DNA of 48,525 bases, the filler included, from Ionaspis alba (taxonomy: Eukaryota), in NCBI GenBank assembly GCA_964255285.1. It is 2 parts of 2 records of this genome, joined end to end, with 100 filler letters (N's around TTAATTAATTAA, not from the genome) between each part and the next. Parts side by side here need not be neighbours in the genome. Positions count along the whole stretch, not along the records: positions 24,340 to 48,525 come from CAXUUL010000175.1; 1 more part is not named here. One strand, 5' to 3'. How positions within the stretch are numbered: the stretch's first letter is position 1; the number at the start of each line of letters is the position of its first letter. The translations under genes were made by a program, and so were the position numbers. Under the pieces are notes generated by a model that saw nothing but the letters and a program-made list of their open reading frames with translations, searched no databases and was not told the origin of the DNA. This document shows, in pieces, positions 2,617 to 48,260 of the stretch.

Positions 2617-3189
2617 ATGGTCTTGAGCTGATTAAAAGCGTTTTCCTCAAATTTTGTTAGGCCCCTAACTAGACGTCGTTTTCTCGGCACTCCTCTTGTA
2701 CTCATATTCCCCTTTAACGGTTGCCACTTCGACTCGCTGTCTTCTTATATGTACAGGCTCTGGAGATCATTGGGTGGAACGGCTAAGGTTCTTGTAATTA
2801 CATAGCTTCATGGGAATCAATAAAGGACATTCTCCTCTCGATGTTTTCTGTACTCCTTCAACACTGAAATCTTGTCGTGTATTACCGTCCACTACGGAAG
2901 GTTGTAGACTTATATCGTACTACCACTGATGAGTGAAACACTGAAGACATCGACAGCCTGAATACCCAAGGAGTATAGAGAAGACTTGTTCGTCCAAACT
3001 TCAGGTCGCGATCATAGAAGCCTTTTCACCAGCGGTCATGGGCATGAGCTGACGAATGCGGCATAGTTGGGGCTTGGCCAATTCCCTACGATTGACCGGA
3101 CAGATGCTTGTGATTTGCTCATCAGATCATAACTATCAACAACTTCTTGAGACCAGGACGATTAAACCAGAGATAAAAACACAGTAGCT

Positions 3190-19821: not shown

Positions 19822-22057
19822 TCAATCCAACCGCTCCTTCCCATCCGCCCAACTAGTCCCCACGCCCGCACAAACCGCGGCATAATCCATAAATAGTTCC
19901 CTATCTCCCACCCCTTCCGTCGTCCAAAACATCGTCCAACCCTCTCCCCTTTCCGTCGGAATCTTCCACATCCCCCTCGCCCGCTCGAAATACCACTTAT
20001 TGACCGGATTTCCCCTGCGACTACGCCACACCACACCTTTCGGGAAACACTCGCGAACCATGGCACTGAAGACGATGTCGGCCACTCCGCCCGCTCCTTG
20101 AGACCGTCTGAGTACAGCGAATTTGTCCAGGTACGGGACAAGACGGGAGGTATGTTCAGGTGTTCCCGGGAGTAGAGTGCTGGGTAGGGAGGGCGGCGTC
20201 TCCCATGTCAGAATTGCAGCGCCTTCGTATTCGCCAGCGATGATAATGCCGGCCAGGGATGTGGATAACCGGGCGAGGTAGTGCTGGACGTCGAGTTTTC
20301 GGCCGAAAGAGTCCTCGATGAGGTGGACGAGTCGCGGAAGGTCGATTCGTGGGTCGGACATTTGCAGTGCAGATGAGGTACTGGAGGGTGCCTCCCAGGG
20401 CGCTTTCTGTGGACTGGGAATAATGGTAACGGGCATGCCTCGTTTGAAAAACGTGGGCGGAGAGGGCGTGTTGTGGAGCAAGGAGTTTGATCCTGATACC
20501 CGAGTCTGTGGGAGCGAGGAAGAAAATATGGGCTTGTCGGTCAGGAGGTTGTGTATCAGTGCGTTCCTTTGACTGCGGGTGCCTACGCCTGGTGTGGACG
20601 GCGTTGTATGTTGCGAGGAGTTGGCGGCCTCCTGAGGGGTAATCAGAATGGCAGAAGATGATGGCGGCAGAATAGCCAGTGTGTTTTTGACAAGCTCCAT
20701 GTTTTCGAGTGCAGCTTCTAGGTGGAGGGTTTGGCGCTGGGACGAGGCCACTGCACTTCTATCATTCACGTTGGGATGAATCAAGTTCTGTGGTTGCACA
20801 TGACTCTTCAGTTCTTCGTATATCGTATGATACTCTTGCTCGAGATTTATGAAGATATGCGGTCTTTGGCCCTTGTCCATCGAAGGAATGCCGCCACTAG
20901 GATCCAGCACGATAACACGATCGAGAGAAATCTGATTCTGTGCAGCATTGATCCTTTCGGCTGTTTCCAATGGATCTTCCTCTGAGGTCGGGCTCTGAAC
21001 AATGCCTGCAAACTCACGTGCTAGAGCAAGGACGACTTCGCTAGCTTCGACCTGCCCTATCTTCTGCCCTTCGATAGTGTAACCAATCGGTGCAATAACT
21101 GGTATGAGGCCCCTTCGAAGAGGGGTGAGGAGTAGCTTCCGATTCGCAATTTGTGTTCTTCCTCGTACTTTCACTGAGTGTGCGAAGTAGTCGTCTAATG
21201 ACATGATCGCAACTACACTGTCCAGTCTTCTAGCTCCATGTTTGCTGTGTAGCTCTATCCCCGCTGCGACTCGATCTGCTTGTTCAAGAGCTTTGTCACG
21301 CCATGCTAGGTTATGCTTGTTCGATGCCGTGTTTTCCTTCTCCTGTTCTGGTCCAGCATCGACCACGACAACACAGCTGAGACCGAGAGTGGTAAGCTGG
21401 GATAGGGTACGACCAATGCCTCTCAAGGTCTCGTCTTCTATCGAGTCTGTAGATCTGAAGTGCACAAGGGCGACGTGAAGAGGACCAGCGAATGGATCGA
21501 CAAATGTCTGGATAGGGGCTATTTGATTGAAGACCGGGCTCTCATCCACAGCTCTTATTGGTAAGAACAGGCTTCCCAGATTGACACCATGGCAGAGATC
21601 CGCCTTCTTATTAGAAACCGCTTTTGGTTGGATATTATTTGCTGCTTTCGGCTTCTTGCTAGGCTCACTGAACCTCGAAAGGTACGACTTCGCCTCTCTT
21701 TTGCTGGAAGTCGAGCTCAGAACGTCGAACAAAAGATGCTGTGACGTATTAATTGATTTCAACTTGACCTCTTCAAATACTCACCCTGTCAGTCAGCTGT
21801 TTTTGGGCAAGCCCCGTAAGTCGCTGGCTCTGCTGTTTGCCCTTTTGTGAGGGAAGAGCTTGATGGCTGTCGGAGTCATTGGATACTAGACTGTTAACTG
21901 AGGAGTATGACTGTAGCTGCCGACCGCATTCGAGAGGAGAGCATAGAAGTTTCTGCCACTTTAGATCAGTATGATCAGTAGCATTGGGCTAAGGGATTCA
22001 GACTGTAGCACTGGCCAAATCCCTGCCTCCAGTCAAGGCCAAACTCGGCGATTTCAT
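19822..22057 (-). CDS. ARG2: Mitochondrial amino-acid N-acetyltransferase (N-acetylglutamate synthase)
   Basis: KREAKSYLSRF, NALIHNLLTDKP.FSSSLP, YLDKFAVLRRSQGAGGVADIVFSAM and WRSRRGNPVNKWYFERARG motifs. Two short 5' introns; the inferred start is ATG 22057 (MKSPSLALTG...) and that N-terminus is tentative. Confidence 0.93.
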
Positions 22058-24239: not shown

Positions 24240-24339
24240 NNNNNNNNNNNNNNNNNNNNNNNNNNNNNNNNNNNNNNNNNNNNTTAATTAATTAANNNNN
24301 NNNNNNNNNNNNNNNNNNNNNNNNNNNNNNNNNNNNNNN
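24240..24339. other. Artificial 100-bp contig spacer: 44 N + TTAATTAATTAA + 44 N
   Basis: TTAATTAATTAA at 24284-24295 gives stops in all six frames and is symmetrically padded by N, as expected of an assembly linker. Confidence 0.95.
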
Positions 24340-24600
24340 AATTAAATATTATATAAATAAACGTTTAACTACAGTTTTTTATTTTTTATTTTATTTTATA
24401 TTTTATATTTATATTTTATTATAAAATTCAAAAATATTGGCTATCTATTTTAATTTGTAATTAATAAGGTTTAGCTACCTCTTGCTCGACATTGACATTT
24501 TTAAAATATTTATTTTATAACTATAAATTTTTTAAAAAATATATATTATTAATAGGCTTCTACCTTGTTTATCAGGAAAATAATGAACGGTTTTAACGAT
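24340..24600. repeat. Extremely AT-rich tract, probably a RIP-degraded repeat or transposon relic at a contig end
   Basis: Long T/A runs, abundant TpA and very few G/C, grading back to normal composition by ~24.9 kb. Confidence 0.6.
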
Positions 24601-25795: not shown

Positions 25796-27097
25796 TCAAC
25801 ATACTGTACTTTTCTCTTGAGGCTCTTGATCTAGGATATGAATTTTGACAGCATTTTTAGTACGATCAGCTGCAGTCTCTAACGCATTTACAGCCTCATC
25901 GAGTGTGAAAGTATGTGTAATCAATGGCCTCAAATTGATATATCCCGACTGCAACAGACGGATTGCATACGGCCAGGAGTGGTGGTAGCGATTAATGAAT
26001 TTGATGTCAATCTATAGCCATACGGTAAGCGAATTTCTTCTGAAGGGGGTCGTATAGCTGTCTTGAACTGGAAGAGACATACCTCAGCCAGCGAAAGGTG
26101 CATAAAAGGTAACCCATCCATAATTGCTCTCCCAACCCCAATAACCATAACTTGTCCACCCCTCCGACATGCGTAAGCTGCAGTATGAACGCTACTGTGC
26201 ACGCCCGAACACTCGTACACAATACTTGGCTGCTCGCTATTGAGCACTTCTGTAAACATAGCCACAATCTCTCCAGCATGCGTCTCCGGCGTGCCATCTA
26301 TTGGCGTCAAAAAGACCTCACACTCGGGCACAAATATCTTCGCGAACTCCAACCTCGCAGCGTCAATATCCGTGACCACCAGCGGCCAGGCCCCACTCGC
26401 CTTCGCCGCCGCCAACGCAATCAGCCCGATCGGACCGGCGCCACATATCAACACGGGCTGGCCCAACCGCAGCGGCGCGCGTTCAATCGCATGCAGCACG
26501 ACGCTCAGGGGTTCCAGCAACGCGCCATCACTAAACGACAATCCCTCCGGCATTTTATGTAGGTATTTCGCGTGGTGGACATGATACCGACGAATCGAGC
26601 CGTGGAAGGGCGGCGCGCCGGAGAATTTCACATCCGCGCAAAGATTGTACTCGCCCGTGCTGCAGTTGTGACATTGATGGCAGGGCACGCCAGGCTCGAT
26701 GGCGACGCGGTCCCCGGGCGCGAGATGCTTGACGTTGGACCCGGTGGAGAGGATGACGCCGGCGCCTTCGTGCCCGAGGATGTAGTCCGAGGATACGATG
26801 CAGGTGCCAATCTCGCCGGCTTTCCAGAAATGGAGATCGGAACTGGGGAGGAATTTAGGGTGGGTTCGGAGTAGAGGTTGGGAAGAAGGTGTGATTGACT
26901 TACCCGCAGATGCCGTTTGCGCGGACGTGTACAATGCAGTCGTCGGGCCCGGGAGTTAGGGGGGTTGATGATGCACTGTAGATTCTGTGATCTTTTGTGG
27001 TGTAGAGCGCGGGATTGGGAAGAGGAAGAGAGAAAGACCCGGCTGGGTTTTGCTGTGTGGCGCGTGGCATGTTGGCACTGGTTGCAATTGCAGTCAT
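25796..27097 (-). CDS. Zinc-dependent polyol dehydrogenase (L-arabinitol 4-dehydrogenase/galactitol dehydrogenase-like, MDR family)
   Basis: Exons 27097-26904, 26842-26083, 26011-25796. GICGSDLHFW, LGHEGAG, structural Zn motif CHQCHNC...C, LEPLSV, GAGPIG and IDIKFINRY. Confidence 0.93.
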
Positions 27098-27511: not shown

Positions 27512-27611
27512 NNNNNNNNNNNNNNNNNNNNNNNNNNNNNNNNNNNNNNNNNNNNNNNNNNNNNNNNNNNNNNNNNNNNNNNNNNNNNNNNNNNNNNNNN
27601 NNNNNNNNNNN
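27512..27611. other. Scaffold gap (100 N)
   Basis: Run of N. Confidence 0.99.
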
Positions 27612-28315: not shown

Positions 28316-30156
28316 TTACTGATAGACAGAATGTCCGATTGGATGCTGATCAGATGCCTTCACAAACTCCGTATGGTCAGACGAAGCTTTGACGGAAACG
28401 TTGCTCTGCATGCTGGAGATGTTTTTCGTAGAGCCCTTTGTTGTATGCCATCCCTGAAAGTCATTTGATACGCTGGTATCGAGGGCTTCCTGATACGCCG
28501 GAAGGCCACCAGACCTGCAGATGAGTACGTCAGTTGCGTAAGATCAAAAGGATATCGCCGAGGAAACTTACCAATTTAGTGGCTCTATTTTTCTCCCTGG
28601 AATGTTTGCACCTTGATACCACGACTTTGCTTGTGGGAACAATGATGCATCCCATTTCTCTTGCATCTGTTTGCACCAACTATCTTCTTGCTCTTCTGTC
28701 GCCTCAAGCACCTCGATATTTTCCTCCATGCACTTCCTGATTGTGCTGTCCACCCATAGTGCTTGAATGTGTACAGTGCTGGGCCCATTGGAGAAAGCGG
28801 TCGGAGCTTGGGGACCATAAAGGAAAAACATATTGGGGAACTTGGGGATCGCAATCCCAATACTGGTCCGTGTACCATCTGCCCAGTGCTCTCCGATGGT
28901 CTTTCCATGAGTTCCCCGGATGTTGAGCTGGCCCAAGCTGCCGGTGACGGAATCGAAACCGGTGGCAAGAATGATCACGTCAACATCAACTGTACCAGCA
29001 GTCGTTCGCAGCCCGGTGGGTGTCACTTCGATGATGGGGGTTTTGTTGACGTCGACGATGTCAACGTTGTCCTCGGAAACGACCTCGTAGAAACGTTGCT
29101 CGAGACTGGGACGCTTCGTACCCCATGGGTGAGGCTTTTGTTCCGGTGCGAGAAGTTCTGCTTTCTGTGGATTCGAGATGCGCTTGAGGACTTGTCGCCT
29201 CCAGAATTCGTACGCTTGCGCATTGGCCTTCTCATCGAAGAGCATATCTTTGTAGGTTGCGAGCCAGTATCGGAAGCCACCTTGCTCCCACAACTTGGCG
29301 TAAAAGGCTTCGCGTTCCTCCGGGCTATCGTCGAAAGTGTTTTTCTCAGCAAAATCGAACAGGAAACCTGCAAATGTTGTCGGAATGAGGTCGAACTCTT
29401 TCTGATAGGTGCCGTCATCCTTTCTGGCTTGTTCTTCAGCTGGTTCAAGTTTTGCTTGTCTCATGGGTAGACACATGTTCGGAGTGCGTTGAAACAGTGT
29501 GAAGTGCTCTGTTTGAGGAGCAACCTCCTGGCAGAGTTGAATGCCCGTTGCGCCAGTACCAATCTGTGCAACCCGTTTCCCTCTCAGATTCACACCATAT
29601 TGAGGCCAAACAGCAGTGTGATAAATGTCGCCTTTGAAATCGCCAAGATTCTTGATCGGAGGTGTATAGCGCTTTGCAGCGAAGCCAATGCATGGAATAA
29701 ACCACTTCGCATAGATGTATTCGCCGTCAGAAGTTTCGACGAGCCACTTGCCACGTGCTTCGTCAAAGACAGCTCCATCAACATGCTTGTCGTAAACGAT
29801 GTCCTTCTTCATGTCCCACTTTTCTTGCACGTAATCAAAGTATCGCTTGATTTCCTTGCCACTAGGATATCTCTCAGTGAAAGTGAAATCTCGCCAGAGT
29901 TCCTCATCGTAAAGCTGGTAGATTGGTACAGCACTGTCCACGCGAGCGCCAGGATAGCAATTCCAGAACCAGATTCCGCCACTAGCAGATCCTTTCTCGT
30001 AGATTTTGCACTTCAAGCCCTGCTTGCGAAGCCTATAGAGGATTAGTGACGTTGTTCGCCGGGAAGTCACGTGACGTACTTGTTCATAACCGAAAAGGAG
30101 CCAAAGCCGGCCCCTACGAGAAGGGCATCGACTTCGGGAATGCTTAATGAACCCAT
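28316..30156 (-). CDS. Type I Baeyer-Villiger monooxygenase (cyclic ketone monooxygenase family, FAD/NADPH)
   Basis: Exons 30156-30080, 30032-28572, 28514-28316. GAGFGS, GGIWFWNCYPGARVD, BVMO fingerprint FKGDIYHTAVWP, IGTGATGIQ, FQRTPN, ATGFD and SWYQGANIPG. Confidence 0.95.
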
Positions 30157-31195: not shown

Positions 31196-32116
31196 TCAGT
31201 CGTGCTTCCCAACAAATCCCAACACCTTCTTTACAAAGTCCTGCGGATTCTCCTCAGCAGTCCAGTGCCCACTCTTATCCACCGTCACAACCTCTACACC
31301 CTCATAGAACTCCCGCGTCTGCTCCTCCGCCACTTCAAGCAGCAAACTCATCTCCCCACACAAGGCGGCTGCGGGCATCTTCAACTGCCCACCTTGGTCC
31401 AGCTTCGCGCGATTGTCTTTGGCGTCCTGCGGAAAGGCGCGGTAGAGCTCGAATCCAGCTCTCATGCCACCCGGCTGGGCGAAGCTAGCCGCGTAGTGAT
31501 CCACGTCTCGCGGCGTGATGCCAACGGGGTTGAAGCAGAGGCGGTCGTAGAAGTGCTTGATGTAGATCTTCTCCCGACCTTGAGTGAGTAATTCGGGGAG
31601 GTCGAGTTGTTGTTGGAAAGTGAAGTGCCACATGCCAGGCGAGTTCTTGAAGCCGGATTCGTAGGGGGTTGCGCCGGGTAGAGGGCATTCCCCGAACATC
31701 ACTGAACGGGTGTGGTCGGGGTGGGAAGCTGCGTAGGCGTGGGCGATCATGCCGCCTATGTCCTGGCCGACGACGTGGAGGGGAGCTGTTACGCCAAGGT
31801 GATCGTGGGCTACTTTGTACAGATCGTTGGCTATTGTGACTTTGTCGTATCCTGATTTGGGATGTGATGAGTCTCCTGCTCCACGGTAGTCTGGTGCAAT
31901 CACTCTGTATCCGGCCTTGGCGAAAGGAGTTATGACGTGCCGCCATTGGTAGGAGGTGTTGGGGTAACCGTGAATGAGTAGGATCACGCCCTTTTCGGTC
32001 CCACCGAGAGATGGACAGTCGATGTAGTGTATTCGAGCTTCTCGAGCATCATCTACAAATGCATGGCCGTGCTGCCAATCTTTATCGTCAATCTCCGTTG
32101 GGTTGAGGGACGGCAT
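31196..32116 (-). CDS. Alpha/beta-fold hydrolase, soluble epoxide hydrolase/haloacetate dehalogenase-like
   Basis: Intronless, 306 aa from ATG 32116. HGYP oxyanion motif, PDYRGAGDS, Asp nucleophile elbow GQDIGG and SGHW catalytic His. Confidence 0.9.
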   Translation of the reverse strand: MPSLNPTEIDDKDWQHGHAFVDDAREARIHYIDCPSLGGTEKGVILLIHGYPNTSYQWRHVITPFAKAGYRVIAPDYRGAGDSSHPKSGYDKVTIANDLYKVAHDHLGVTAPLHVVGQDIGGMIAHAYAASHPDHTRSVMFGECPLPGATPYESGFKNSPGMWHFTFQQQLDLPELLTQGREKIYIKHFYDRLCFNPVGITPRDVDHYAASFAQPGGMRAGFELYRAFPQDAKDNRAKLDQGGQLKMPAAALCGEMSLLLEVAEEQTREFYEGVEVVTVDKSGHWTAEENPQDFVKKVLGFVGKHD

Positions 32117-33299: not shown

Positions 33300-34454
33300 A
33301 TGTCTGGAGAGATCAAACCATTCAAGATCGATATCCCCGAGCGAGAAGTCGAGAGGTATTACCGGAAGATCAAAGATACACGAGTACCTACCAAAGACAT
33401 CGTCCCCAATGCCGGGAGTGATTATGGCTTCACCACCGAGTGGGCCACAGAGCTTTACAGCACCTGGACGGACAAGTACCACTGGCACGAAGAACAGAAA
33501 GTAATGAATCAATGGCCCCATTTTACGACGGAACTCGAAGGCCTCAACATCCACTTCGTCCACCAGCGCTCCGAATCCCCATCCGCGTACCCACTCCTCC
33601 TCGTTCATGGCTGGCCAGGCTCCTTCTATGAGTTCAGCCGCATCATCAACCCTCTCACCAACGCCAACTCCCCCCTTCCATTTCACTGTGTCGTGCCCAG
33701 CCTTCCCGGCTTCTGCTGGTCCTCTGGTCCGCCGCGCGGCTGGACGCTACAGGACACGGCGCGCATCTTTCACGCCCTGATGCTCCGCCTGGGCTATAGC
33801 CAATTTGCAGTCCAGACTGGCGACTGGGGCCATTGGGTCGGGCGCGAGCTCGGTGCCCAATACGCCGACTCTTGCAAAGCTGTGCATTTCAACTTCGCCC
33901 CCGCGCTCTTGCCCGAAGGCGCAGAGCTGACGGAGCGGGAGGCCCAAGTCCAAGACAGAGTAGACGATTGGCTGAAGAACCATATGGGCTACGCGGTCAT
34001 GATGCGCACTCGTCCGCACACGGTCGGGTGGATGCTGCAGGACAACCCTGTCGGAATGATGGTCTGGCTGGGCGAGAAATACAACGAGGCGGCGGATCCG
34101 AAGAAGCAGCAGGTGGAAGAGTGGAAGACTCATATCCTGACGACGGTGTCGCTGTACTATTTCAGCAACTGTATCATGACGTCAAGCCTGCCGTACTACG
34201 AGAACATCCGGCATGAGAATTTTGCGGAGTTTGCGATGAGGCCGAAGAATAGGATCAAGTGCCCGTTCGGATATACGAGTTTTTACTGGGACACGGAGCC
34301 GAGTTCGAAGCGGGCGGTGGAGAGGACGGGGAATCTGGTGTTTTATCGAGAGAGGAATGATGGTGGGCATTTTGCGGCTGTAGAGTGTCCGGAGGGGCTT
34401 GTCGAGGATGCTAGAGAGTTGGTAGGGATAGCACTGGGAAGAAGTTCTTCTTAG
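33300..34454 (+). CDS. Microsomal-type epoxide hydrolase with EHN N-terminal domain
   Basis: Intronless from ATG 33300: IKPFKIDIP, IHFVHQRS, LLLVHGWPGSFYEF, VVPSLPGFCWS, GDWG nucleophile and GGHFAA. Confidence 0.93.
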   Translation: MSGEIKPFKIDIPEREVERYYRKIKDTRVPTKDIVPNAGSDYGFTTEWATELYSTWTDKYHWHEEQKVMNQWPHFTTELEGLNIHFVHQRSESPSAYPLLLVHGWPGSFYEFSRIINPLTNANSPLPFHCVVPSLPGFCWSSGPPRGWTLQDTARIFHALMLRLGYSQFAVQTGDWGHWVGRELGAQYADSCKAVHFNFAPALLPEGAELTEREAQVQDRVDDWLKNHMGYAVMMRTRPHTVGWMLQDNPVGMMVWLGEKYNEAADPKKQQVEEWKTHILTTVSLYYFSNCIMTSSLPYYENIRHENFAEFAMRPKNRIKCPFGYTSFYWDTEPSSKRAVERTGNLVFYRERNDGGHFAAVECPEGLVEDARELVGIALGRSSS

Positions 34455-36171
34455 AGCAATGATGACGTGGAGACTGATGTACCATCGTTGAGTTGGCACA
34501 ACGCGAGCCTTGTTTCGCAGGCCATCATATAGGTAGACTTCTAGGCTTGGTGCATGTTCCGCCATTTCCTGCCTTCACTGCTCAAGGAATGGGAAGCGAT
34601 ATGAATTGAGCGTTGCGGACGAGACCTTCAGTGGATTGGTTTCTTCAGGTAAACCACCTTCAACAAAGTTGTCGTCTATGCAGGCACACTAAAGCGATCA
34701 TCTCAATATTCTTACCGAAACCCATCGCCTCTCCAAGTATGCCACCACGGCCTGGTCCAAATCATGACTGCATAGCTGGCAGATCCGATGAAACGACCCT
34801 CAATGCATGACTGACATGATCTTCACTGTAATAGGTATCTGTGCTGGTCTTAAAGCCCTAGGGCGAATTCTTCTCTTCTCATTCTCCATTGGCCATCACC
34901 TGGCCGGCTCCCGCTACCTCGACACCTTCTCTTGCAAGGAGCCAGTTCACAGCTCGATGCTGGAACGGGAACAGACGACATTGCAGCAGGCTAATCTCAA
35001 TCCAATCAGAGACTGTGGAGGATTTCTCCGGCACGTAAACGTTGTCATAGAACTCGCGAGGATGCCATTTTTTCGGGATGTATACGGTGTCTCACTACCT
35101 TATGGCTGGTATCTCCTCAACACATCAGACGAGTGTCGTGATAATCTTGTCCTGTGCTTGCACGCTATCTTGCCACAGTAATCTTCAGGCGCAGGCTGTA
35201 TGCCCCACCACGACTGCGGGCTAATACTGCATGCGGGCAGAGCAGAAGATATCTTGCAGGCCCCTTACTGGTCCTCCAGATCGACTAATCTGCGCAGCGT
35301 CCTGGAGTCCAGCTGTGATTTCTCCATGATGAGAAGTGTCGAAGGTATACCGGAAATAAAGGCGGAGAAATCTTTTACTGGTAGGGGCGATCGTGGTCAC
35401 GAAGCCATCGTCGGGAAAGTGCAAGTCCGTGATAACGACCTCCACCGCATCTGCAGCACCTATCGCGTCCTGTAACTGCTTATCGTCATTTTGCTGTACT
35501 GATAGAAGACCACGGGTACTTCAGGAAGCAAGGTCTGCAATTGGTATGAAGGATGGATGAAGGATTCACCCCCTGAACTAAACTAATATACAAAGCCACT
35601 AGGCCTAATCGAGTGACCCCCGTTCTCTCTGGTCTTAAGGTCGGTGCCGTAGCGGCAATCGCAATAATATACTTCTGCCCGGTTGCAGCATCGCGGATAG
35701 CGGTCCGTGTATCAGACACTCGGCGACGCTTTGCTGGTTGCCCTTGATAATAACCAGCGTCCGCCATGTCCACACCTCTGTCCCAGGAATCAACACAAGG
35801 ATGCAGGGACGTGGAGAACAAAACAATCGGCAGAAGAATCGTTCAAATTGAAGATGGAGTACTCGCGGCGCCCCGGAAGGCGCTCACGGCCGACATTTTG
35901 GACGTGCAACATGTCGCGAATTGCGATTCTTGCAAGCATGCGGTTAATCCTAGTAGGGCGACCTCAGCTTCGTGGTGGAGGTCCGGATGCGCAGCAACAC
36001 GAAGGCAGTTTGAGGCAGGGAAAATGATTAAATATGGGCAGATGTTTGGATCTCACAATACTCAAAGCAATGACAGTGACATGTTTGATTATGGACAGTT
36101 TGATGATCTTCTCGCCGCACTCCTTTCGCGATAAGATTGCCCACCTCAGGCTAGTATCAACCACCTTCATG

Positions 36172-36245: not shown

Positions 36246-38158
36246 CTACACCTTCTCAGTATGGATGTGATAATCCTTCGTAGAAATTGCTGAAGCTCGT
36301 CTGCCCAGAGATCCGGCAACTGATTGTCTACGTCCAGTCATATTCTGCTCCAACCTTTCGCGAACCTCTGGCGAACGTGCAAAAAGTACATCGATCTCTT
36401 CCAGTGTTTTGCCGGTTGCTAAAATGTGGAAGGAAATGATTAGTACTGATCTCTAATTTGGTGGTAGTACACATGTCTTTGTACGGAGATTTACGGGTTG
36501 AAGACTTACTCTCAGGGCAGAGGAAGTAGACGTAAGCCGCAGCAAGGAAGCAGCAGAGCAGAGGCCAGATGAAGATCTTCGGACCAACGGCATTGATGCC
36601 AGTTCCGCCTCCGAATACCATGATCCAGGTAGAGAACCATTCGCCCGCGGCACCAAGACTACCGGCAACGTGTCGATACTTCAATGGCGCAATCTCAGGT
36701 CCATATATCCAGCAAGTTCCAAGCCAGCCAAAGGCAAAGACGACTTCGTAGAGGATGATAATTACCACAGATGCCCAATTGGTCCCAATGTTGCTCATGC
36801 TAGCCGGCAGAGTTGTGAGAACAATATAGATGAGCATACAAACACCGCAGCCAAGGGCAGACCTAAGACCGCGAAAGATACCGAGTCAGTAAATGGTCCC
36901 AAGGAGAAGCGAAAATCGCTGTAAGGGTGTGAAAGGCCGCTATCCTGTGTTACTCACCAAATCATCATGGCTCGGCGCCCAACTTTTTCGATGTACCAGA
37001 TCGGAGGGTATGATGCGATGGCGAAAGCGGTGTTCAGCACGCCGGCTAGGATTCCGGATAGCAGAGGCGAGTAATGAAGGTTAGAGAAGATCGTGGTGCT
37101 GAAATACACTAGCATGTTGATTCCTAGAAACTGTTGTGCCTGATGGTTTGTATGATCAGCAGATATCCAGGACGGAGATATGTCTTCAGAAATGCACCTA
37201 CCCAATTGATGAGGAAGGAAGTTCGAAGACGACGGCCGAACTGAAGCTCTGTATTATCCCACAACAGACACCACCAATTGAGATTTTCTTCGCCGTCTTC
37301 TTCCTTCAGAGAAGCAAGAATTTCCGACCTGACAAGCTGCACGGCCGGATGATCGACCGGCAAACAATGAAGACGAGCCAACACGTTGTCGCCTCTGTCA
37401 GAGTGACCTCGCGCGTAGTACCAACGGGGAGTATCGGGTAGCAAGAACAAAAGACATGCGGAGAAGATTGCGAAGCAGCTTTGCATCGCTAATGGGATAC
37501 GCCAGAGCCAAGGATACCGGTCAAGGCCTTGTACAAAACCCAGGTCAACCCAGTACGCTAGGGCGACACCAGTGATGAGAAGCGCAAGCTGGTAGGAAAC
37601 TTCGGGTCCTCGTTCTCGAGCTTCCAAAGACATCTCGGCCTATACAAGCAATATGTCATTAGCACATATCCAATACAGGGACATTCGCCATGAGGAGCAA
37701 TACCATGTAAGTTGGAACGGCGGAAGCAATGCAGCCAATGCCCGATCCAGTGACAATCCGCCCAACAATGATCTGAGCAACGGAATAAGTCGAAGCTTGG
37801 AGAAGGGCGCCAATGCAGATCAAAAGACAACCGAGAAGGATAGTGCCCTTCCTGCCAATCTGCATACCGAAAGAACTGACACAGAGCGACATGATGCCGG
37901 CAGCGAGGTTGTAGATTGATGCGATGACCGGAATAATCTGTGGCCCCGTTGGATTACCAATTGCCTCTAGAAACTGGGGCGTCGCTTGGATGCCACCAAG
38001 AACGCCTGGAATTCTGGTCAGACAAGCTCGGAGAAAGCAACAGGTACGAGCTTACCAGCATCCCATCCATAAAGCATAAACGCAGAGCCGCACGCCGCGC
38101 TCATGAGGCGATAGAGCGTCTTGCCCTGGACATTGTCGAGAGCGCCAAGTATCGCCAT
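36246..38158 (-). CDS. MFS sugar porter (STL1-like sugar/polyol transporter group)
   Basis: Exons 38158-38056, 38005-37704, 37639-37202, 37139-36958, 36862-36510, 36418-36246. YGWDAG, IGRKG, GRIVTG, PTYMAE, PDTPRW, QQFLGIN, VGRR, YGPEI and PETTGKTLEEID sugar-porter motifs. Confidence 0.94.
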
Positions 38159-39037
38159 TATCGAGTGGGATTGTCTTTCATTCAGCAATAGAAGCACGGA
38201 AATGCTCCAATGTAACTCAAATCAAAGAACTTTATAAAGCAAGAGAGTGGATAATCTTGACTTTGACTTGATCTTGAGAGAAAGATAAAATAAAACTTTC
38301 GACCTCTAGCATTGGGTGAACCGGGGACATGACCTCAAACTATATACCACACAGCTCGGTACCCCTTGCACAACATCAAGCGAAGCAACAAAGACAGAGG
38401 AGTGGATGGAAGACAGGAGGTGTAAACGGTAGACAAGAGGACTAGTCGGAAGACAAAAGGACCAAGCAGAAGAGTATGAAAGGCGGGTGGGGCGCGTGTC
38501 ATTTCCATCTTTGATGGCTCGATGCCTCCAGTAGGCTCCTGGAAACGACGAATGACACCAAGGTAAAGAAGGGTATTTGAGAAATCAAGCGATGGCTTTC
38601 ACACTCCTTCCAGCCGAACGAAGTAGTATTGCTAGTGCTGGGACAGAGAACGAGATCTGATTGTTGTCTGATGTTATTCTGCAGTCGGTCAAAAGGGCCG
38701 GGGAAAGGAAAATGCCACGCGCTAGAAAATTCCTGTTTCGGCCATTGCGGCTAGTTAATAGTGGTCTACCGGAGTTGTGCTCCGAGGTACATCCCGAAAA
38801 CGATCCCTCCTTGCAAGATCCCGACCCGGTAAATTTTTCCCGATCTTTCGATTGGCTACCAGAACGTTTATGATGGTTTCCACCACGAGGTTGAACCAAG
38901 CAATGGCTTGTCTATCATCCTACAGGGTACCATACAGCATGAGCGAAAAATTGGCCTGGCCTCCTCTTCGTAGGATCTGTGTTTGACCTCCCTTCCAAAG
39001 TGCTGTTGATCACTGCAAAATTCATCTCTTAACCGCC
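38159..39037. promoter_or_regulatory. Divergent promoter shared by the transporter and the SDR
   Basis: Head-to-head genes. SYGGRG (CreA-type) matches at 38321, 38487, 38698 and 38769; GGCTAG at 38749; CGGAG-N5-CTCCG at 38770-38784; CGG-N10-CCG at 38827-38842. Confidence 0.55.
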
Positions 39038-40062
39038 ATGCAACGAGTGCTTCTCCGTCACAACGCAGCTCGGCTTGCTGTCGACTCTCGCAAGCCCTCA
39101 TCCTGTCTCTTCCAATCTACCACGACTTTCCCTTCAGAATTACATAGGTCAATCGTCCCAGACCACGCTCTTCCGCCCAACGATGTCCAAGCACGTCAAC
39201 CTGCAAGAAGGACGTCTATCAAGGACCTTTTCTTGTTGGGAGAGAGAACAGTTGTCGTAACTGGCGCTGGGCGAGGTCTGGGGATAACCCTCGCCTCCGC
39301 TGTGCTCGACGCTGGTGGGGATGTTGTGTGTCTCGATGTGCTACCGCGACCAAGTGAGATGGATTGGGCCGGTATCACGAAAATCGCAGAAGAAACAGGT
39401 AGACATGCGACATACCACCAATGCGACATAGCTCGAGAGGAGCAGGTCCAGGCTACTCTGGCAGACGCGGTGTCTCGGGCGGAAGAGAGAAAGAAGCCTG
39501 TACGTGGTTTGATCAGTTGTGCTGGTATTCAGCAAACAGTTGATGCAATGGATTATCCCACCGACGGCTTCAAGAGAATATTGGACGTGAACGTGACAGG
39601 CAGCTTCCTCGTTGCCAAACACACAGCGCGCCTGATGAGAGACGCAAAGAACAGCGGAAGCATTGTTTTTATAGCATCCATGTCAGGACAGATAGCCAAT
39701 CGGGTACGCTCTCACGACTACCGTAGACGCCGCTGACAGGGCTATAGGGTATTCATTGCTCAGCATACAACACCTCCAAAGCTGCAGTACAGCAAATGTG
39801 CCGTTCTCTATCCATGGAATGGGGGCGTTATGGCATCAGGGTTAATAGCCTCTCGCCTGGCTACATTCGCACCGCAATGACCGATCAACTTTTGGCAGAG
39901 AAGCCAGAGATAAAAGATGTATGGATGGCAGGCGCATTACTTGGTCGTCTGGGTTCCGTAGAGGACTTTAAGGCGCCTGCGGTGTACCTACTTGCCGACG
40001 GGGCGTCTTTCATGACTGGGGCTGATTTGAGGGTTGATGGAGGTCATTGCGCATCTGCGTAG
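39038..40062 (+). CDS. Short-chain dehydrogenase/reductase, D-arabinitol 2-dehydrogenase/sorbose reductase-like
   Basis: Exons 39038-39703 and 39748-40062. TGAGRGLG, CAGI, NVTG, IASMSGQIANRG, catalytic YNTSK, IRVNSLSPGYI and MTGADLRVDGG. Confidence 0.92.
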
Positions 40063-40594
40063 TCGTTCCACGTTCTATAATATTGAAGGTATGGTATACT
40101 AGATAGGGTTTACAATGCCCCGAAATTCACAGCACAGCTAATAGCTTCCCTTCATGATCACAGAGTGTTGTATCGCATGCATTCAAGATCCCAACAATAA
40201 TAAGATCCTGTCCCTGTCACCTCGAAACAAGAGGGAGCGCTGCCCATCACACATCAGCACCGTATTACCTACACTTCTATAAAAGGTCCGCAACCCTATA
40301 TAAAGTTACTGGTGAATTGACAATGATGGACGCACTTGAGAGACATCAGGCAAAAAATCACAGGTATCATGCCGAAAAGATGCCAAGCGGTTTTGGCGTT
40401 TTGCACTTGAGAGTTTTTCCCCGCACTTCTTCTTCTCTAACCTGAACGGCCTGAGAAGTTAGTGTCAATATTGCCTGTCTAAGTCGTGGCCGTTGAAATA
40501 ATGCTGAGACTGGTAGCATGGTGACTGACCTAGGAGATCCCTTCACCATCATAGCTTTACCCCAACGATGATTTTTCGCGATTAAAGCCATCTA

Positions 40595-43054
40595 ATGGCT
40601 GAACAAGAGCTCTCGGTGGAGAGCAATAGTAATATGCAACCGACACCCTCGAAAAGAGACAGGGGCTTCGCCGTCTCGAAACGTAGCAGAGGCAGAAGCG
40701 GATGCTTGAATTGTCGACGCCGCAGAAAGAAATGTTTGTTGGACCAGTCACTACTTTCAGGAAGCTGACCTCCCGAAGGCGACGAAGGGAAACCGGCGTG
40801 CGCGAAATGCACCGCGCGCGGCGAATCTTGCGAATGGGACACCAGGATTACCTTTCGATTGAGTGGGATTGGCACCTATCATCCCTCCATGGTCCATTCA
40901 AGGAATTTGAAGACCCATAGTGATTACCAGGTTAGTTTGCATTGATGTGCTTGCCCCATGGACTAATGTATGTACGCGTAGATCATGAATGTCACTTTCG
41001 ACGATAGTACAGGTACCTCGCAGCATGTCTACCATGAACAGCCAGACGCGATGTCCCAACATTCTTCGACGTCGTCCAATGAGCAGAGCGTGTGGGATGT
41101 GCAAGAGAGCCACTCCAGTCGCAACGTCGCTTTACCCGACAATGAGCAGACCTTGAGACCTTTGTCAATAGAGAGTGGCGCTTTCTCGACCCATAGTGCG
41201 ACCATTACAGGCTCTTCTTCCGAGAAGCATCCAAGCACCCAGGCGATCGAGAATTCCACTCGATTTCATGTTTCTGACGGGTTAGTAGGCTCAACGGCTG
41301 TCAGTCTGAAAAACAATAGCAACGGCAACCCTAACGACCGCGAGGGAAATATTGGCACTTTTCCAATCTCACGACCTCACATCAGTGCAGCCGATTCCAC
41401 GATTGAGATGGCAGATTTGCCATCTCAAATGGCAACAACGCCGAGGTTCAGCTGCTTAGATCCATTCAACGGTGAAACGAGTGCCCAGGCGCAGCCTGCA
41501 ACGACATCTTCGGAGCTCGAAGCGCTCGACTATCTCACAAGCCAGCCAAATAATATCGATTTCTTCGCATCTGCGGCGCAGCAAGGTGGATCGTTGCAAT
41601 GCTATTCCAGGAGCAACTCAGATCTCCTACATCCCCCTTTCACGAGTGAATCAGCTCTGGCTGATACTCCTGACCTAAACACTGTTTGTTATCCCAATGT
41701 TACATATCAGGACTTGCACACAACTTTGTATTATCACATGGTGGAGACGGCGCGGAACACTGCTTTAACACGACAGGCTTCGCCGGATCCATATGCTCAG
41801 GAGGCTCCTCCCATTGCGCATGATGCTTCGCCCTCTCCATCAAATATCAACGAAATACGAACACAGATCCGAGAACCTGGTCTGCGACTTCGATCATTGA
41901 AATCCGTGAAATTGACTCAGCGAAGACAGCTCGAACTTTGGCGTAACTATCTCGACGAAATTGCCGTCTGGCTGGACATGTTTGATAATGACCGACATTT
42001 TCAGTTCAAGATACCACTTCTTGCAAAATCGGCCGACCATCTTCACTATTCCATCTTAGCACTTTCCGCGCGACAGATGGAGAGAAAGGGTCCCGGTAAA
42101 CCATATACTGAATCGTTGGGATTGTATCAAGAGGCGATTCAGCTCATAGTCAAGGAACTCCATACTCTGGAAACCACTGTGATCGCTTCCTGTGTCTTGC
42201 TGTGTGTCCTAGAAATGATGAGCTCTTCGCCAAGAGCCTGGTGTCATCACCTAAACGGTTGCGCCATGCTTCTTGAGGCAGCCGGCGTGAATGGCGTCGT
42301 TGGCGGAGTTCGACAATCGCTGTTTTGGTGCTTTGCAAGAATGGATGTCTGGGGAGGATTCCTCGAAGATACACCGACCAAAATCCCAACGAACCGATGG
42401 TTTATTCCAAGCGGATCCATGATTGAAACGGTGACTCGTTTCAAGGCAGGTCCTGGAAGTCACAGTTATGCCAACTATGCTGTTTTTCTTTGTGCCAGTG
42501 TCGTCAATGTGATATCTAACAAGACTGGCTCCTACGTAGGTCAGGCTGAAGTGGACTCTGTCCGGAAAGCCACCTATTCGGCTCGATGGAAGGCGTTGTT
42601 TGACTTGCTGGAAGACTGGTATAACAATCGACCGGAAGAAATGCAGCCACTCATGGCATATCCTTCAGGTTCCGATGAACCTCGAGAGCCATTCTCGGTC
42701 GTGCTCTACGGCAGTTCGCCAGCTGTCAACGGAAACCAGTTGTATCATGCGGCTGCACTCATGATGTTACAGGACAAGCCCAAGGACATTCGTCTCTCCA
42801 AATCTCCGAAATCAATCTTATGGCATGCTCGTCAAATTTGTGGTATCGCTGTATCGAACAGTGATCACGGTACCCGGATCAATAGTTTGCAACCACTCTG
42901 GATTGCTGGCAAGATCATGTCACATGAAACCGAACATCGAGCCATTCTCGATCTTTTGGCACAAATCGAGAGCGATACCGGGTGGGCCACTGCATGGAGA
43001 GCGGAGGACCTCAGGGATTATTGGGGTGATGCGAAGTGTTCAGAGACGCATTGA
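40595..43054 (+). CDS. Zn(II)2Cys6 transcription factor with fungal-specific C-terminal regulatory domain
   Basis: Exons 40595-40733, 40779-40930, 40982-43054. Splicing restores RSGCLNCRRRRKKCDEGKPACAKCTARGESCEW. C-terminal IAVWLDMFD, ILALSARQ, FWCFARMD and QPLWIAG. Confidence 0.93.
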
Positions 43055-43498
43055 GGTGCAGTCCTTTTAAAGGCGTGAAACTCAACTATGTCTGTTCCTC
43101 TGCCCCGGAAGGAGAATTAGCAAAGAAGTTGCGTGACGACGCCAGTTCTATCCCAGGCGGAAGAAAGCTCCTAAAGTGGGTACAGATATTTTGCCTTTAC
43201 CATAATTCCAAATAAGGTAATCTCAAACGCTGCGCTTGACAATCCGAGACATTGCCTCAACATGAGACTTCCACACAACGCATGACCGGAACCTACCACA
43301 AGGATAATCGAATTTGAGAAGCATAGCTATGTTATGGCGTGAAGGATGCTTTGGTCAGACTCGCGCCCTCGAAGATGTTCAAGCCACTTGAACCTGAATC
43401 AAAATAAAACGACCATTTCTGACTATGTCCGGCGGCGCCAGCAGCTCGAAATTCCATAAAGTGTTGAAGGACCGGTGGAAAGTTCCCACTGTTCGTTC

Positions 43499-45301
43499 AT
43501 GTCCGCCACTGCCCTCCTTAATATGTCTCCTTCTGAGACCTTAAAATTTGTCAATCGACATTATATCGGACAATTCCCACGTGAAACAACCAGATTACAG
43601 CAGTTTCGACTCGATACAGGGCTCTCTCAATCTACCAGGACATCGAAGCGCGAATTTCCGGACGACCATGAGCGCATGTCCCTGCCTACGCGTTCATTCT
43701 CTCACAGCCCAGCTTCGTCTGTGGCAATACTCGATGAAGTCGGTTCACAGAATGATGCAAGTGCAAAGTTGATCATTGTCACGGTCGGTCTGCCCGCTCG
43801 AGGCAAAAGTTATGTGACGAAGAAGTTATGCAGATATTTGAATTGGTTACAGTATGACACCAGGATTTTCAATGTTGGAGACAGGCAGCGAAAGCTTGGA
43901 CGACGTCCCATACTCTTTCCCCTCGAGGGACCCCATCCCGTGACGGTTACACAGGCAGCAGATCACTTGAACGATCATTCTGCCAACTTTTTCGATCCGG
44001 AAAATGACGAAGCAAAGAAACTACGAGAAAAGGCTGCCATGGAGACATTGGACGAATTGCTCGACTATTTGATTCACGACGGCGGCTGTGTTGCGCTCTT
44101 TGATGCCACGAACAGCACCATTGAACGTCGAGATCTCATCATACAGAAAGTCAGAGAACGAGGACCGGAGCTTCGAGTCATGTTCTTGGAGAGTCAATGT
44201 TTTGACGAAAGTGTACGTTTTGCGTCAAAATTCGCAGTGTTCTATTGACTCTTGCCTAGCTACTCGAATCAAACATGCGTCTGAAGCTATCAGGACCAGA
44301 CTTCAAGAACGAGGATCTAGTTTCTGCTCTTGAAGACTTCAAGAAACGCGTAGCCATGTACGAGAAGAAGTATGTGCCACTCGGAGCGTCGGAGGAACGC
44401 CACGGCTATTCATATTGCCAGATGATTGATGTGGGACGAAAATTTGTCATTCACAATATCTCTGGCTTTTTCGCTACCCAAGCCGTACACTATCTTCAAC
44501 ATTTCAATCTTCTTCCAAGACAGATATGGCTCACAAGGCACGGAGAATCCTACGACGATGTTGCTGGTCGAATTGGGGGCGACGCTGAACTTACCCCCTT
44601 CTTTGGGGTCAAATATGCAGCAGCATTGTCAAGATTCATCGATTGCCAAAAAGAAGCATGGAAAATATTGTAAAAGGGAGAAGATAGTCGTAACAAGAGT
44701 TCTTTCCCTGATGCGCTGCAACGGGCTGCTCCCGCAGGCCAGGTGCCGAAGACATTTCACATTTGGACATCAATGATGCGAAGAAGCATGCAGACAGCCC
44801 GATTTTTTGCGACGCCAGACTACCAGACGAAGCATTTACGCATGCTAGACGAGTTGAATGCGGCGTTCTCGAGGGTTTGACACGCGAGAAGGTCAAAGAT
44901 TTCTATTCAGATTGGTACAACGAGCGACAAAAAGATAAGTTCCGCTTCCGGTATCCTGGCACTGCTGGTGAAGGGTATCTGGATGTCACGAATAGGCTGA
45001 AGTCGGTCATACTTGAAGTGGAATCTGTGACGGATCACGTCTTGCTGATTTCTGGTCTGGCTGTCACACGAATCCTATTGGCCTATTTTAGAGGCCTTCA
45101 TAGAGACGAGATCGTTGATTTGCATGTCCCCCTCGGCGCATTGCACGTGCTCGAACCGGTAAGGGGATCCATTGTCGCAAATTACGTATGAACGGCGTTT
45201 GGGCTGACCAAGGTGTATCGTAGAAACCGTACGGCGTTGGCTATCGGGTGTATGTATATAATGCAGCAACGGATTGGTTCGACCTCAGTAAAGAAGATTG
45301 A
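43499..45301 (+). pseudogene. 6-phosphofructo-2-kinase/fructose-2,6-bisphosphatase; kinase domain intact, phosphatase domain disrupted (pseudogene or truncated kinase)
   Basis: VGLPARGKSY P-loop, YLNWL, FNVG, FDATNST; intron 44213-44259; LTRHGES. In-frame TAA at 44671-44673, after which the same frame continues as HIWTSMMRRSMQT...MLDELNA. A 1-nt frameshift near 44860-44862 precedes GVLEGLT...RYPG..GEGYLD. Last intron 45159-45223, stop 45301. The start could also be 43523 or 43676. Confidence 0.85.
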
Positions 45302-45899
45302 TTTCGCTTCTATCAGCAACTTGACTGTGGCAAACGTCAATGGCTGAGACAAGGAAGTGTATAGCAAAGGCACAAACTTTTCGCTTTCGAAGTCGTTCTC
45401 ACATGATCACACATCGTGTGCTGATTGAAATCCACGATCCAGAGCAGTTAGGCTCACTAACAGAATTGTTAAATCTACCCACGAGCTGCTTCTCTGCCAA
45501 ACGTCATCCCTATCTCAACTCCCGAGTTCACACACATGAAGTTCGTGGCATTGGTGACCCCCCGGGCGCATGAGCAGGAAACACCCAGATCACGAGGGGA
45601 AAGGCCCAGAGAGCCCCACTGCCGGAAATCCGTGACCCAGAGCCAGTATTGACCCACTCAAAATTACACCCAAAGGGGGAATTCTCGGCGCTTCCATGTT
45701 GATTGCTGATCACTTCTAGGCGCTTCGCTCTTCCAAGATAGATTAGCGCGACGAGAGCACATCATTTCTCCATCCACTGATCTATCCTGTCAGACCTGCA
45801 CGATGAAACGATATATTGCAATGCCTCTGCACCACTTCCAGGCACTCTATCAGAAGCAGTTCCGGATTCCCCTGTCGAAACCCCGACCGCCTGGAAGCA

Positions 45900-48260
45900 A
45901 TGGCTCCATCACTTGCAGACTACGAAGACGCCGTGTCCTTGCAGCCCGTCAAGGTCCACCAAACGAAAATCGGCGGCTCGAACGGAATTAATTCGGTGCA
46001 GCCTCGGGAGAGTGAAAAACATGACTTGGTTCTCCGGGTCTTCAGATGTCTGATCGCAGACTTGTGCGAGCAATTCAATGGTGGCCATCCTGGGTCGGTA
46101 TGAACTCATCACAAGTCGCTCGTTTGCTGATGATAGCAGTGGTGCAATGAGCATGGCGGCCATTGGCGTTTCACTCTGGAAATACGCTATGAAGTACTCT
46201 CCAAGCAATCCAGCCTATTTCAACCGCGATCGTTTCGTGCTCTCTAATGGTCAGCCATTGTACACAGAATTACGGTTGTGGAAGCTGACAAATCACAGGC
46301 CACACTTGTCTCTTTCAATACACATTTATGCATCTTGTTGGCTATAAAGCCATGACAATCGAGCAACTGAAATCATACCACTCTAAACGGACAGACTCAA
46401 TCTGCCCAGGGCATCCGGAAATTGAACATGAGGGCATTGAAGTCACGACAGGCCCACTTGGCCAGGGCGTCGCGAATGCTGTCGGTCTTGCCATGGCTAC
46501 CAAACAGCTTGCAGCCACGTACAATAAGCCAGGATATGCCCTTGTAGATAATATGACTTGGTGTATGATAGGCGATGCCTGCTTACAAGAAGGCGTCGCT
46601 CTAGAGTCTATCCAGCTGGCAGGCCACTGGAGACTTAACAACCTGGCAATCGTTTACGACAATAACCAGATTACTTGTGACGGGTCTGTCGATATGGTGT
46701 GTACTGAGGATGTCAACGCAAAGATGCGAGCTTGCGGGTGGACTGTCGTTGACGTCTTCGATGGAACGTCAAATATCCAAGGTATCACACAAGCACTCAT
46801 CAAAGCCCGCGTAAGTGCGTTGCCGACCTTTATAAATATCCGTACCGTTATCGGCATCGGTAGTGCCGTAGCAGGTCAGGCAAAGGCTCATGGTGCTGCT
46901 TTTGGTGCTTCTGATGTCGCCAATATCAAGCAACTCTTCGGCATGAACCCCGAGGAGCATTTTGGTATCCCAGATACGGTATACGACTTCTTCCATGAAG
47001 CACGATCCCGGGGTGAGAAATATGAAGCAGACTGGTCTGCTTTGGTCGAGTCCTACAATCGAGAATTTCCTCGAGAAGGTGCCGAGTTTCAGCTACGGGT
47101 CCGTGGCAGAATGCCTCAGGACTGGACTCAGTTCATTCCAAACAGAGAGAGTCTTCCCACTGGACCAACTTCATCCCGCAAATCTGCTGGCATTGTATGC
47201 AACCCTTTGGCAGAGAACCTGAAGAACTTTATGGTCGGCACGGCAGATTTGTCTCCATCAGTCTGCATGGCTTTCAAGAATCAGGTGGATTTCCAGAATG
47301 TGAGTTAGTCCTCCAACAACTATTCGGGCAGTCAATAATAGCCTCTAGCCTGAGCTCAAGACAGCTTGCCGTCTAAATGGCACTTATGCCGGTAGGTACA
47401 TTCACTACGGAATTCGCGAGCACGCCATGGCATCCATTTCCAATGGGCTCGCTGCATTCAACAAAGGCACTTTTTTGCCCGTCACCTCGACCTTCTTCAT
47501 GTTCTATCTATACGCTGCACCTGGAATCCGTATGGGGGCTCTCCAAGGTCTTCAACAGATTCATATCGCAACTCATGACTCGATTGGTACTGGTGAAGAC
47601 GGGCCAACTCATCAGCCTATCGCCCTAGCAGCCTTGTATCGTGCGATGCCGAACCTGCTATACATTCGTCCTTGCGACACGGAGGAAGTAGCCGGTGCTT
47701 TTATCATTGCTCTCAATGCCTCCTCCACTCCTAGTATGATTTCATTATCGCGCCAAAATCTAGTCCAATTTCCGCAGCACTCATCCCGTGATGGTATACA
47801 GAAGGGTGCATATGTGTTCATTGAACAAGAGGAAGCCGATGTGACGATCATTGGCGTCGGCTCCGAGATGGGTTTCGCTGTCCAGACAATGGAGGTCCTC
47901 GCGCGCGACCACAACATCAAAGCGAGAGTAGTCAGCTTCCCCTGCCAGCGTCTGTTCGATCAGCAGAGCAAACAATACAAGCAGAGTGTGCTCCGATACA
48001 AGAGCAAAGCGCCACTCGTGGTGATCGAAGCATATGTCGCTCACGGATGGGAGAGATACGCTGATGCCGGAATAAGTATGAGCAGCTTTGGCAAGAGTTT
48101 GCCGGGTGCCGAGGCATACAAGTATTTTGGGTTCGAGCCTCCAGTCATGGCCAAGAAGATCAAGGATCTTGTTGAGGAAGTGCAGCGCGAGGGGATTGAA
48201 TCGTTGAGAGGGGACTTTAGGGACCTCAACGGAACCCTGGCTTATGGATTCGAGCATTAA
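45900..48260 (+). CDS. Transketolase-family enzyme, dihydroxyacetone synthase (formaldehyde transketolase)-like
   Basis: Exons 45900-46093, 46140-46249, 46299-47299, 47349-48260. ADLCEQFNGGHPG, NRDRFVLSNGHTCLFQY, GHPE, TTGPLGQG, ThDP motif GDACLQEG...DNN, GIREHAM and THDSIGTGEDGPTHQP. Confidence 0.93.

Follow-up and report, generated by a model that had tools for sequence, protein, structure and literature searches.

A conserved, as yet uncharacterised gene cluster in the Ionaspis alba assembly combines polyol dehydrogenases and a paralogous transketolase with two epoxide hydrolases

The window, a stretch of 48,525 nucleotides from the Ionaspis alba assembly GCA_964255285.1, is made of two contigs joined by a linker at 24240–24339. 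The second contig (G000:C175, 24340–48525) carries the gene cluster described here. Five consecutive genes had been claimed in its right part, and spliced models and Pfam matches bear out their order and orientation. A sugar porter of the major facilitator superfamily (36246–38158, minus strand; PF00083) is intact, with 516 amino acids, five introns and a spliced model free of stops. It stands head to head with a polyol-type short-chain dehydrogenase/reductase (SDR; 39038–40062, plus strand; 326 amino acids; PF00106/PF13561), the two genes enclosing a divergent promoter region of 879 bases (38159–39037). Downstream on the plus strand lie a Zn2Cys6 regulator with PF11951 (40595–43054; 787 amino acids), in which the six cysteines are present after splicing, a broken gene for 6-phosphofructo-2-kinase/fructose-2,6-bisphosphatase (PFK-2/FBPase-2; 43499–45301) and an intact transketolase paralogue (45900–48260; 738 amino acids, three introns) of the type called ‘dihydroxyacetone synthase (DAS)-like’; the contig ends 265 bases past the stop of this last gene. 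Every intron in the models of the porter, SDR, regulator and transketolase is GT–AG. The SDR is 83% identical to its orthologue in Exophiala viscosa, for which the nearest PDB entries are gluconate, galactitol, mannitol and sorbitol dehydrogenases (best E 5e-36), and its acidic residue after the second strand is what we take to be the usual mark of NAD use. Its N-terminal extension (39038–39230), also found in Oculimacula and E. viscosa, is basic and rich in Arg, Ser and Leu, resembling a mitochondrial presequence; in polyol catabolism such an import into mitochondria would be uncommon.

More genes belong to the cluster than the original prediction held: it extends 10 kb further left and fills C175, with four added genes at 25.8–34.5 kb. 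The outermost is a Zn-dependent polyol dehydrogenase of the medium-chain family (MDR; 25796–27097, minus strand, limits by eye; PF08240+PF00107), which resembles L-arabinitol 4-dehydrogenase (best PDB match 3m6i, E 8e-70) and keeps Phe59, presumably diagnostic of that enzyme. The host has a separate MDR paralogue, 51% identical to that of the cluster, and a 100-N scaffold gap (27512–27611) parts the cluster MDR from the other genes. Next comes a type I Baeyer–Villiger monooxygenase (28316–30156, minus strand, limits by eye; PDB 6jdk, E 2e-160, and 5j7x, E 7e-145); this gene and the MDR, both with exon limits set by eye, are likely to be intact at their ends. Two intronless genes follow head to head. 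EH1 (33300–34454, plus strand; 384 amino acids; PF06441) is a microsomal-type epoxide hydrolase with a Tyr–Tyr pair, whose EHN domain, HGxP motif, Asp nucleophile, both Tyr residues and Asp–His align with PDB 1qo7 (E 2e-69), taking the residue roles in that structure as we understand them. EH2 (31196–32116, minus strand; 306 amino acids) is a Cif-like epoxide hydrolase with a His–Tyr pair, closest in the PDB to Cfl1 (7jqx, E 5e-60); aligned to Cfl1 it keeps the HGxP motif, the Asp nucleophile, the His–Tyr pair and the His base (read against PMC8244358). Judged by sequence, EH1 and EH2 are thus epoxide hydrolases of two different classes with full catalytic sets. An Atlas search with EH2 returned only the alpha/beta hydrolase family, and its single-sequence fold, at a predicted local distance difference score (pLDDT) of 39, was discarded. 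In NCBIfam, the SDR, MDR, EH1, EH2 and monooxygenase have no match above the curated cut-off. Between EH1 and the porter lies the remnant of a helicase, presumably of SNF2/RING type judging from its homologues (34850–35770, minus strand), broken into several frames. It is 44% identical to an intact copy of the host on contig C2 and up to 67% identical to other proteins, and it may have come along with the cluster block.

The PFK-2/FBPase-2 gene is present as had been claimed, whereas a working bifunctional enzyme is not: the phosphatase half carries an in-frame stop at 44671–44673 and a −1 frameshift at 44860, with the kinase domain open across Pfam positions 6–220 of 223. The paralogue of the host on contig C302 runs in a single frame through both disrupted places. 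Sequencing run X1 (116× over the cluster stretch) agrees with the window at 44860, so that assembly error was rejected as the cause of the frameshift, and the relatives X3 and X7 (about 90% identity) carry one extra base there; X3 has its own deletions of 2 and 36 bases within the gene. An intron spanning the stop was also rejected, the only frame-keeping candidate found by eye being 30 bases long and the host paralogue having no intron there. PFK-2 directly follows the regulator at two related loci (L012 and L026); the consecutive regulator and transketolase accessions of E. viscosa and E. sideris show that it does not lie between these genes there. PFK-2 is thus, as far as such comparisons tell, a dispensable accessory gene that is decaying in this cluster, although a kinase-only product may still be made.

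The transketolase is not the canonical enzyme of the host, which is encoded on contig C633, but a paralogue. Aligned to yeast transketolase it keeps the equivalents of H30, H69, H103, D157, H263, E418, D477, H481, R359, H469 and R528, and hence an intact thiamine diphosphate (ThDP) transketolase active site. The position of yeast Ile191 is occupied by Cys in all 120 listed homologues, which may widen the donor pocket. ‘Dihydroxyacetone synthase’ is the database name of many of these homologues. DAS of methylotrophic yeasts bears a peroxisomal targeting signal, in its usual definition, at the C-terminus; the cluster enzyme ends in Phe-Glu-His, and no peroxisomal-type C-terminus is found among the 12 commonest endings of the 120 listed homologues. 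Among transketolase paralogues of Aspergillus, which may or may not be orthologues of the cluster enzyme, tktB of A. niger shows hardly any expression on sugar-beet pulp, xylose or arabinose (PMC8552599), which suggests that such paralogues await another inducer, and tktB of A. sydowii goes up as salinity increases but does not follow the levels of polyols (PMC8228332).

A lack of linkage in other genomes would have counted against the original prediction. Linkage of the regulator–SDR–transketolase core was found across Pezizomycotina, as judged in named fungi by consecutive accessions or locus tags. Regulator, transketolase and SDR are consecutive in E. viscosa (KAI1617685-87); regulator and transketolase are adjacent in E. 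sideris (KIV85359-60) and Neodothiora (000738/000739), adjacent or at most three genes apart in E. xenobiotica LTR46 and LTR67 and in Coleophoma (01353/01356), and seven genes apart in E. xenobiotica LTS15. The hydrolases are linked as well: EH1 lies within one to three genes of the regulator in five of the seven named assemblies in which both were seen, namely E. xenobiotica LTR67 (with EH2 adjoining) and LTS15, two E. viscosa strains and Oculimacula. We also inspected 16 metagenome regulator loci, drawn from at least 599 pattern matches; ten are shorter than 6 kb, and the pairs L013/L014, L018/L020 and L022/L023 seem to be duplicates of one another. Among the matches listed for these loci, the SDR occurs in 6/16, the transketolase in 3/16, PFK-2 and the MDR in 2/16 each, and the porter with EH1, EH2 and MDR together in one. 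At this last type of locus (L014, 12 kb) the gene order differs from that of the window, with a porter (65% identical), EH1 (79%), MDR (71%), EH2, SDR and regulator. Compared with the window, L014 shows 0.64–0.78 synonymous differences per site and dN of 0.13–0.30; near-saturated synonymous sites with low dN indicate that the linkage is old and the genes conserved. The head-to-head partner of the SDR varies among related loci, being an MDR (L014), a transketolase (L020) or another porter (L019).

Records of equal size, taken to be one contig each, add further combinations: one of 18,467 bases unites the regulator with EH1, MDR and porter, one of 19,207 bases the regulator with EH2 and porter, one of 50,501 bases the regulator with EH1 and monooxygenase, and one of 8,068 bases EH1 with monooxygenase. 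Relatives of the monooxygenase at 90–96% identity stand on records taken in the same way to be contigs bearing the regulator or EH1. In an unrooted tree of 31 rows picked by hand from the regulator homologues, every hydrolase-linked row falls into one clade of 14 rows (support 100/99), which holds Chaetothyriales, Leotiomycetes and this genome. The linkage in named fungi and metagenome loci supports the claim of a regulator-containing catabolic cluster joining polyol oxidation to a paralogous transketolase. The cluster is conserved, real and not yet characterised, and we hold it to be very probably a functional unit.

A linked kinase, RpiB or triose-phosphate isomerase (TIM) had been predicted beyond 48.5 kb. 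The contig ends at 48525, and the genome holds one dihydroxyacetone kinase (DAK; contig C383), one RpiB (C953), one TIM (C574) and three FGGY kinases above cut-off, all on contigs other than C175. The DAK gene lies between LSM and CBS genes, and the neighbours of RpiB and TIM are likewise unrelated to the cluster. The sole RpiB gene of the assembly (L033:5619-6076) is at a contig end and adjoins a NUDIX gene. Apart from PFK-2, no isomerase, kinase or aldose reductase domain was found by Pfam among the long open reading frames (ORFs) of C175. Eleven related loci of at least 3.5 kb were scanned against Pfam (125 of 225 ORFs, those omitted being mostly genes already identified or duplicated); no FGGY, RpiB or TIM was found in them, and a DAK domain occurs in one, L024, whose regulator is 38% identical. 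A linked kinase on the right flank of C175 is thus unlikely. In L024 the stretch 1174–8457 holds the DAK with a distant regulator, an RTA1 protein and a gene resembling L-threonate dehydrogenase (NF043037, E 6e-89, below cut-off); this locus may encode a fungal pathway for four-carbon acids. Another locus, L025, holds a sister module, in which regulators and a sugar porter accompany an MDR, an aldo-keto reductase and a DAS-like transketolase and no kinase domain was seen.

The epoxide hydrolases and the monooxygenase, which the original prediction had missed, change the question of the substrate. Our preferred reading, to which we give a probability of about 0.45, is that a co-regulated catabolic cluster of nine genes, eight of them intact, funnels a small polyhydroxylated compound of four to five carbons into the pentose-phosphate pool without a kinase of its own. 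The porter would import the compound; EH1 and EH2 would convert epoxide isomers into polyols of the tetrol type by opening the ring; oxidation of these to a free ketose would fall to the MDR and SDR, whose stereochemistry would be complementary; and the transketolase would move a two-carbon unit to a phosphorylated acceptor, either glyceraldehyde 3-phosphate or ribose 5-phosphate. The monooxygenase, or else enzymes of the host, would dispose of the small carbonyl left over, and the Zn2Cys6 factor would induce the gene set. As regards the single steps, we consider the odds to be balanced on whether the hydrolases feed the polyol branch, and to lean slightly towards a transketolase step free of a kinase.

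Several observations weigh against this pathway. All phosphate-binding residues are kept in the transketolase, which fits a phosphorylated donor equally well. The proposed step presumes that transketolases accept free L-erythrulose as donor, and three FGGY kinases and a DAK are encoded elsewhere in the genome. The monooxygenase was found at none of the 16 metagenome regulator loci among the matches listed. EH1 and the regulator lie on separate contigs in two of the seven named assemblies (E. xenobiotica LTR46 and Neodothiora), and L020 has the core with no hydrolase within 10 kb on either side; hydrolases and core can thus work apart. A motif search over 15 promoter regions gave a best 7-mer in 8/15, equalled by one of 50 shuffles, and no 8-mer above the shuffles.

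The strongest alternative, although unlikely in our view, is polyol catabolism of the ordinary kind, with erythritol, threitol, ribitol or arabitol as substrate and a photobiont as its conceivable source. The dehydrogenases would yield a ketose, an unlinked kinase would phosphorylate it for the transketolase, and the hydrolases and monooxygenase would be a passenger module for detoxification. The occurrence of the core without hydrolases in many fungi, the conserved phosphate-binding residues, the kinases in the genome and the apparently lichen-forming host all suit it, as does the use of ribitol and mannitol by E. viscosa (PMC10411609). Yet the hydrolases have stayed linked through changes in gene order and up to synonymous saturation, and their linkage matches a single supported clade of regulators; the host, moreover, possesses a canonical transketolase and another gene of arabinitol-dehydrogenase type. 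The idea of photobiont polyols is weakened by the closest named carriers, which are not lichenised. Erythritol has likewise lost ground as the substrate, E. viscosa having the core yet growing weakly on it, with a score of 1.7–2.0 of 5 (PMC10411609).

Distinctly less probable is a cluster for detoxification and one-carbon metabolism, in which volatile or xenobiotic epoxides and ketones would be degraded to formaldehyde, to be fixed by the transketolase as a true dihydroxyacetone synthase. Many homologues are so named, and TktB and TktC of A. niger have been given EC 2.2.1.3 (PMC6231085), but such labels were given automatically or within a network. The monooxygenase comes closest to enzymes of aliphatic ketones (5j7x is AFL838, which prefers them; PMC4966971), and PFK-2/FBPase-2 could tune acceptor regeneration; against this, neither alcohol oxidase nor DAK is in the cluster, the listed endings of the homologues are not of peroxisomal type, and a sugar porter with two polyol-type dehydrogenases points to a polyol. 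A route for branched plant sugars or polyols (apiose/apiitol or 2-C-methylerythritol), in which the transketolase would cleave a branched ketose to a ketone such as dihydroxyacetone, has the distant modules L025 and L024, the Cys that may widen the donor pocket and the bacterial transketolase route for apiose (PMC13753588) on its side, but is equally improbable given that the cluster has no aldose reductase or isomerase, that two epoxide hydrolases are left unexplained and that tktB is low on pectin-rich beet pulp.

We may wonder at this stage which compound would call for epoxide hydrolases, polyol dehydrogenases and a transketolase together, if the preferred reading of a polyhydroxylated substrate holds. 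One specific candidate gives a role to each of the eight intact genes, although we consider it improbable: a fungal pathway for isoprene epoxydiols and 2-methyltetrols, spread sideways among surface-dwelling fungi including a lichen fungus. The hydrolases would open the isomers, and the two dehydrogenases would converge on a methyl-branched tetrulose, which the transketolase would split into a two-carbon unit and hydroxyacetone. The monooxygenase would then cleave hydroxyacetone to acetate and formaldehyde, and the transketolase may refix the latter. Roots and stem bases, the habitats of the carriers Cadophora and Oculimacula, count against this proposal. Isoprene epoxydiols and 2-methyltetrols are atmospheric oxidation products, placed in leaf wetness by a modelling study (cited in PMC11082906), and the cleavage of acetol to acetate and formaldehyde has a bacterial precedent in Mycobacterium (cited in PMC9300024).

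The host looks lichen-forming, as the original prediction had left conditional: the mitochondrial Hsp70 encoded on the other contig of the window groups with Lecanoromycetes (Xylographa, Alectoria and Letrouitia at 87–91%, the grouping resting on four named NCBI members among 15 listed of 121). That contig, C174, holds ordinary host genes, with Hsp70 at 661–2616, an NDT80-like regulator at 14199–15926 and an acetylglutamate synthase at 19822–21780, the latter two identified by eye. The cluster proteins are instead 75–93% identical to those of Exophiala, with E. xenobiotica at 75–78% for the regulator, 88–89% for the transketolase, 91% for EH1 (84% in Oculimacula) and 93% for EH2 (LTR67_004020; about 80–81% in L014), and in an unrooted tree of 29 rows the transketolase is nested in Exophiala at 100/100. 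A Lecanoromycete-like Hsp70 next to Exophiala-like cluster proteins implies either horizontal transfer or a misbinned contig. The helicase remnant was rejected as a host marker, since the intact host gene is only 44% identical to it.

On this question of the host, it is rather unlikely that the contig comes from a co-occurring Exophiala-like black yeast and was misbinned, with no transfer involved. Misbinning would fit the nesting of the transketolase, C175 having no intact housekeeping gene that we could find, an assembly that is small and fragmented (18.3 Mb, 1282 contigs), and the 120 listed homologues of the regulator and transketolase, among which no Lecanoromycete is named. Against it, TIM, DAK, RpiB and canonical transketolase are each found once in the assembly, and the cluster stretch is at 116× in run X1, which may be the source sample (X2, at about 3×, is probably the same DNA). 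Over 5.1 kb, run X1 departs from the window at a single site, 43928. In addition, the left end of C175 is an AT-rich degenerate repeat (24340–24500) common to other contigs of the assembly: seven match it at 75–93%, five of these were tested and scored 100–169 bits compared with at most 41 for shuffles, and two of the contigs sharing it bear Tra1 and Med12, which favours transfer. The right end of C175 has no match elsewhere in the genome, and the assembly of run X1 stops at the same place, at a fork. Contig C176 was rejected as its right neighbour, contig numbers following size. The block has probably entered or left a lichen-type lineage by horizontal transfer, which we consider a fairly likely explanation as opposed to misbinning. 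The regulator clade reaches Leotiomycetes, and its patchy spread would stand even with a misbinned contig.

Among known systems, the oxidoreductive pentose pathway of moulds (LadA, LxrA, XdhA, XkiA) likewise uses an MDR and an SDR to interconvert polyols and ketoses ahead of the pentose-phosphate pathway, but its genes are dispersed and it ends in xylulokinase, whereas the genes described here are clustered paralogues. Bacterial D-apiose catabolism needs an apiose isomerase and an apulose kinase, neither of which is present here. It does have a dedicated transketolase that cleaves an unusual ketose, as proposed for the cluster (PMC13753588). The nearest described system is the erythritol cluster of Yarrowia lipolytica, with EUF1, EYD1, EYK1, the RpiB-like YALI0F01628g and the TIM-like YALI0F01584g (PMC5992420). 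It, too, is a fungal cluster for polyol catabolism that includes a regulator and a polyol dehydrogenase, a likeness at the level of enzyme class only. It includes a kinase and isomerases, and the available text names no transketolase, porter or epoxide hydrolase as a member; the cluster described here lacks kinase and isomerase and includes a transketolase, a porter, a monooxygenase and two epoxide hydrolases. As no linked DAK, RpiB-like or TIM-like gene was found, it is not a member of the Yarrowia erythritol type. DAS (EC 2.2.1.3) of the xylulose-monophosphate pathway and TktB/TktC of A. niger are, like the enzyme here, paralogous ThDP transketolases beside a canonical one (PMC7918591, PMC6231085). 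The lack of a linked alcohol oxidase or DAK and of a peroxisomal-type C-terminus appears to set the cluster enzyme apart from DAS. EH1 shares fold and catalytic residues with the microsomal-type epoxide hydrolase of A. niger (1qo7), and EH2 with Cfl1 of Burkholderia cenocepacia (PMC8244358). In the open-licence literature covered by our searches, we found neither a description of this cluster nor a link of either epoxide hydrolase class to sugar-alcohol catabolism.

DAS-like transketolases are widespread among moulds unable to grow on methanol, and to our knowledge no role of theirs has been tested. The cluster places them in a setting open to experiment, with five enzymes acting upstream, a regulator and a porter. 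For biocatalysis, it also offers hydrolases, dehydrogenases and a transketolase. If the substrate were indeed an oxidation product of isoprene, surface fungi would act as a sink, so far overlooked, for one of the major fluxes of atmospheric carbon; otherwise, we would still probably be dealing with primary-metabolism genes that moved as a cluster from one fungal class to another.

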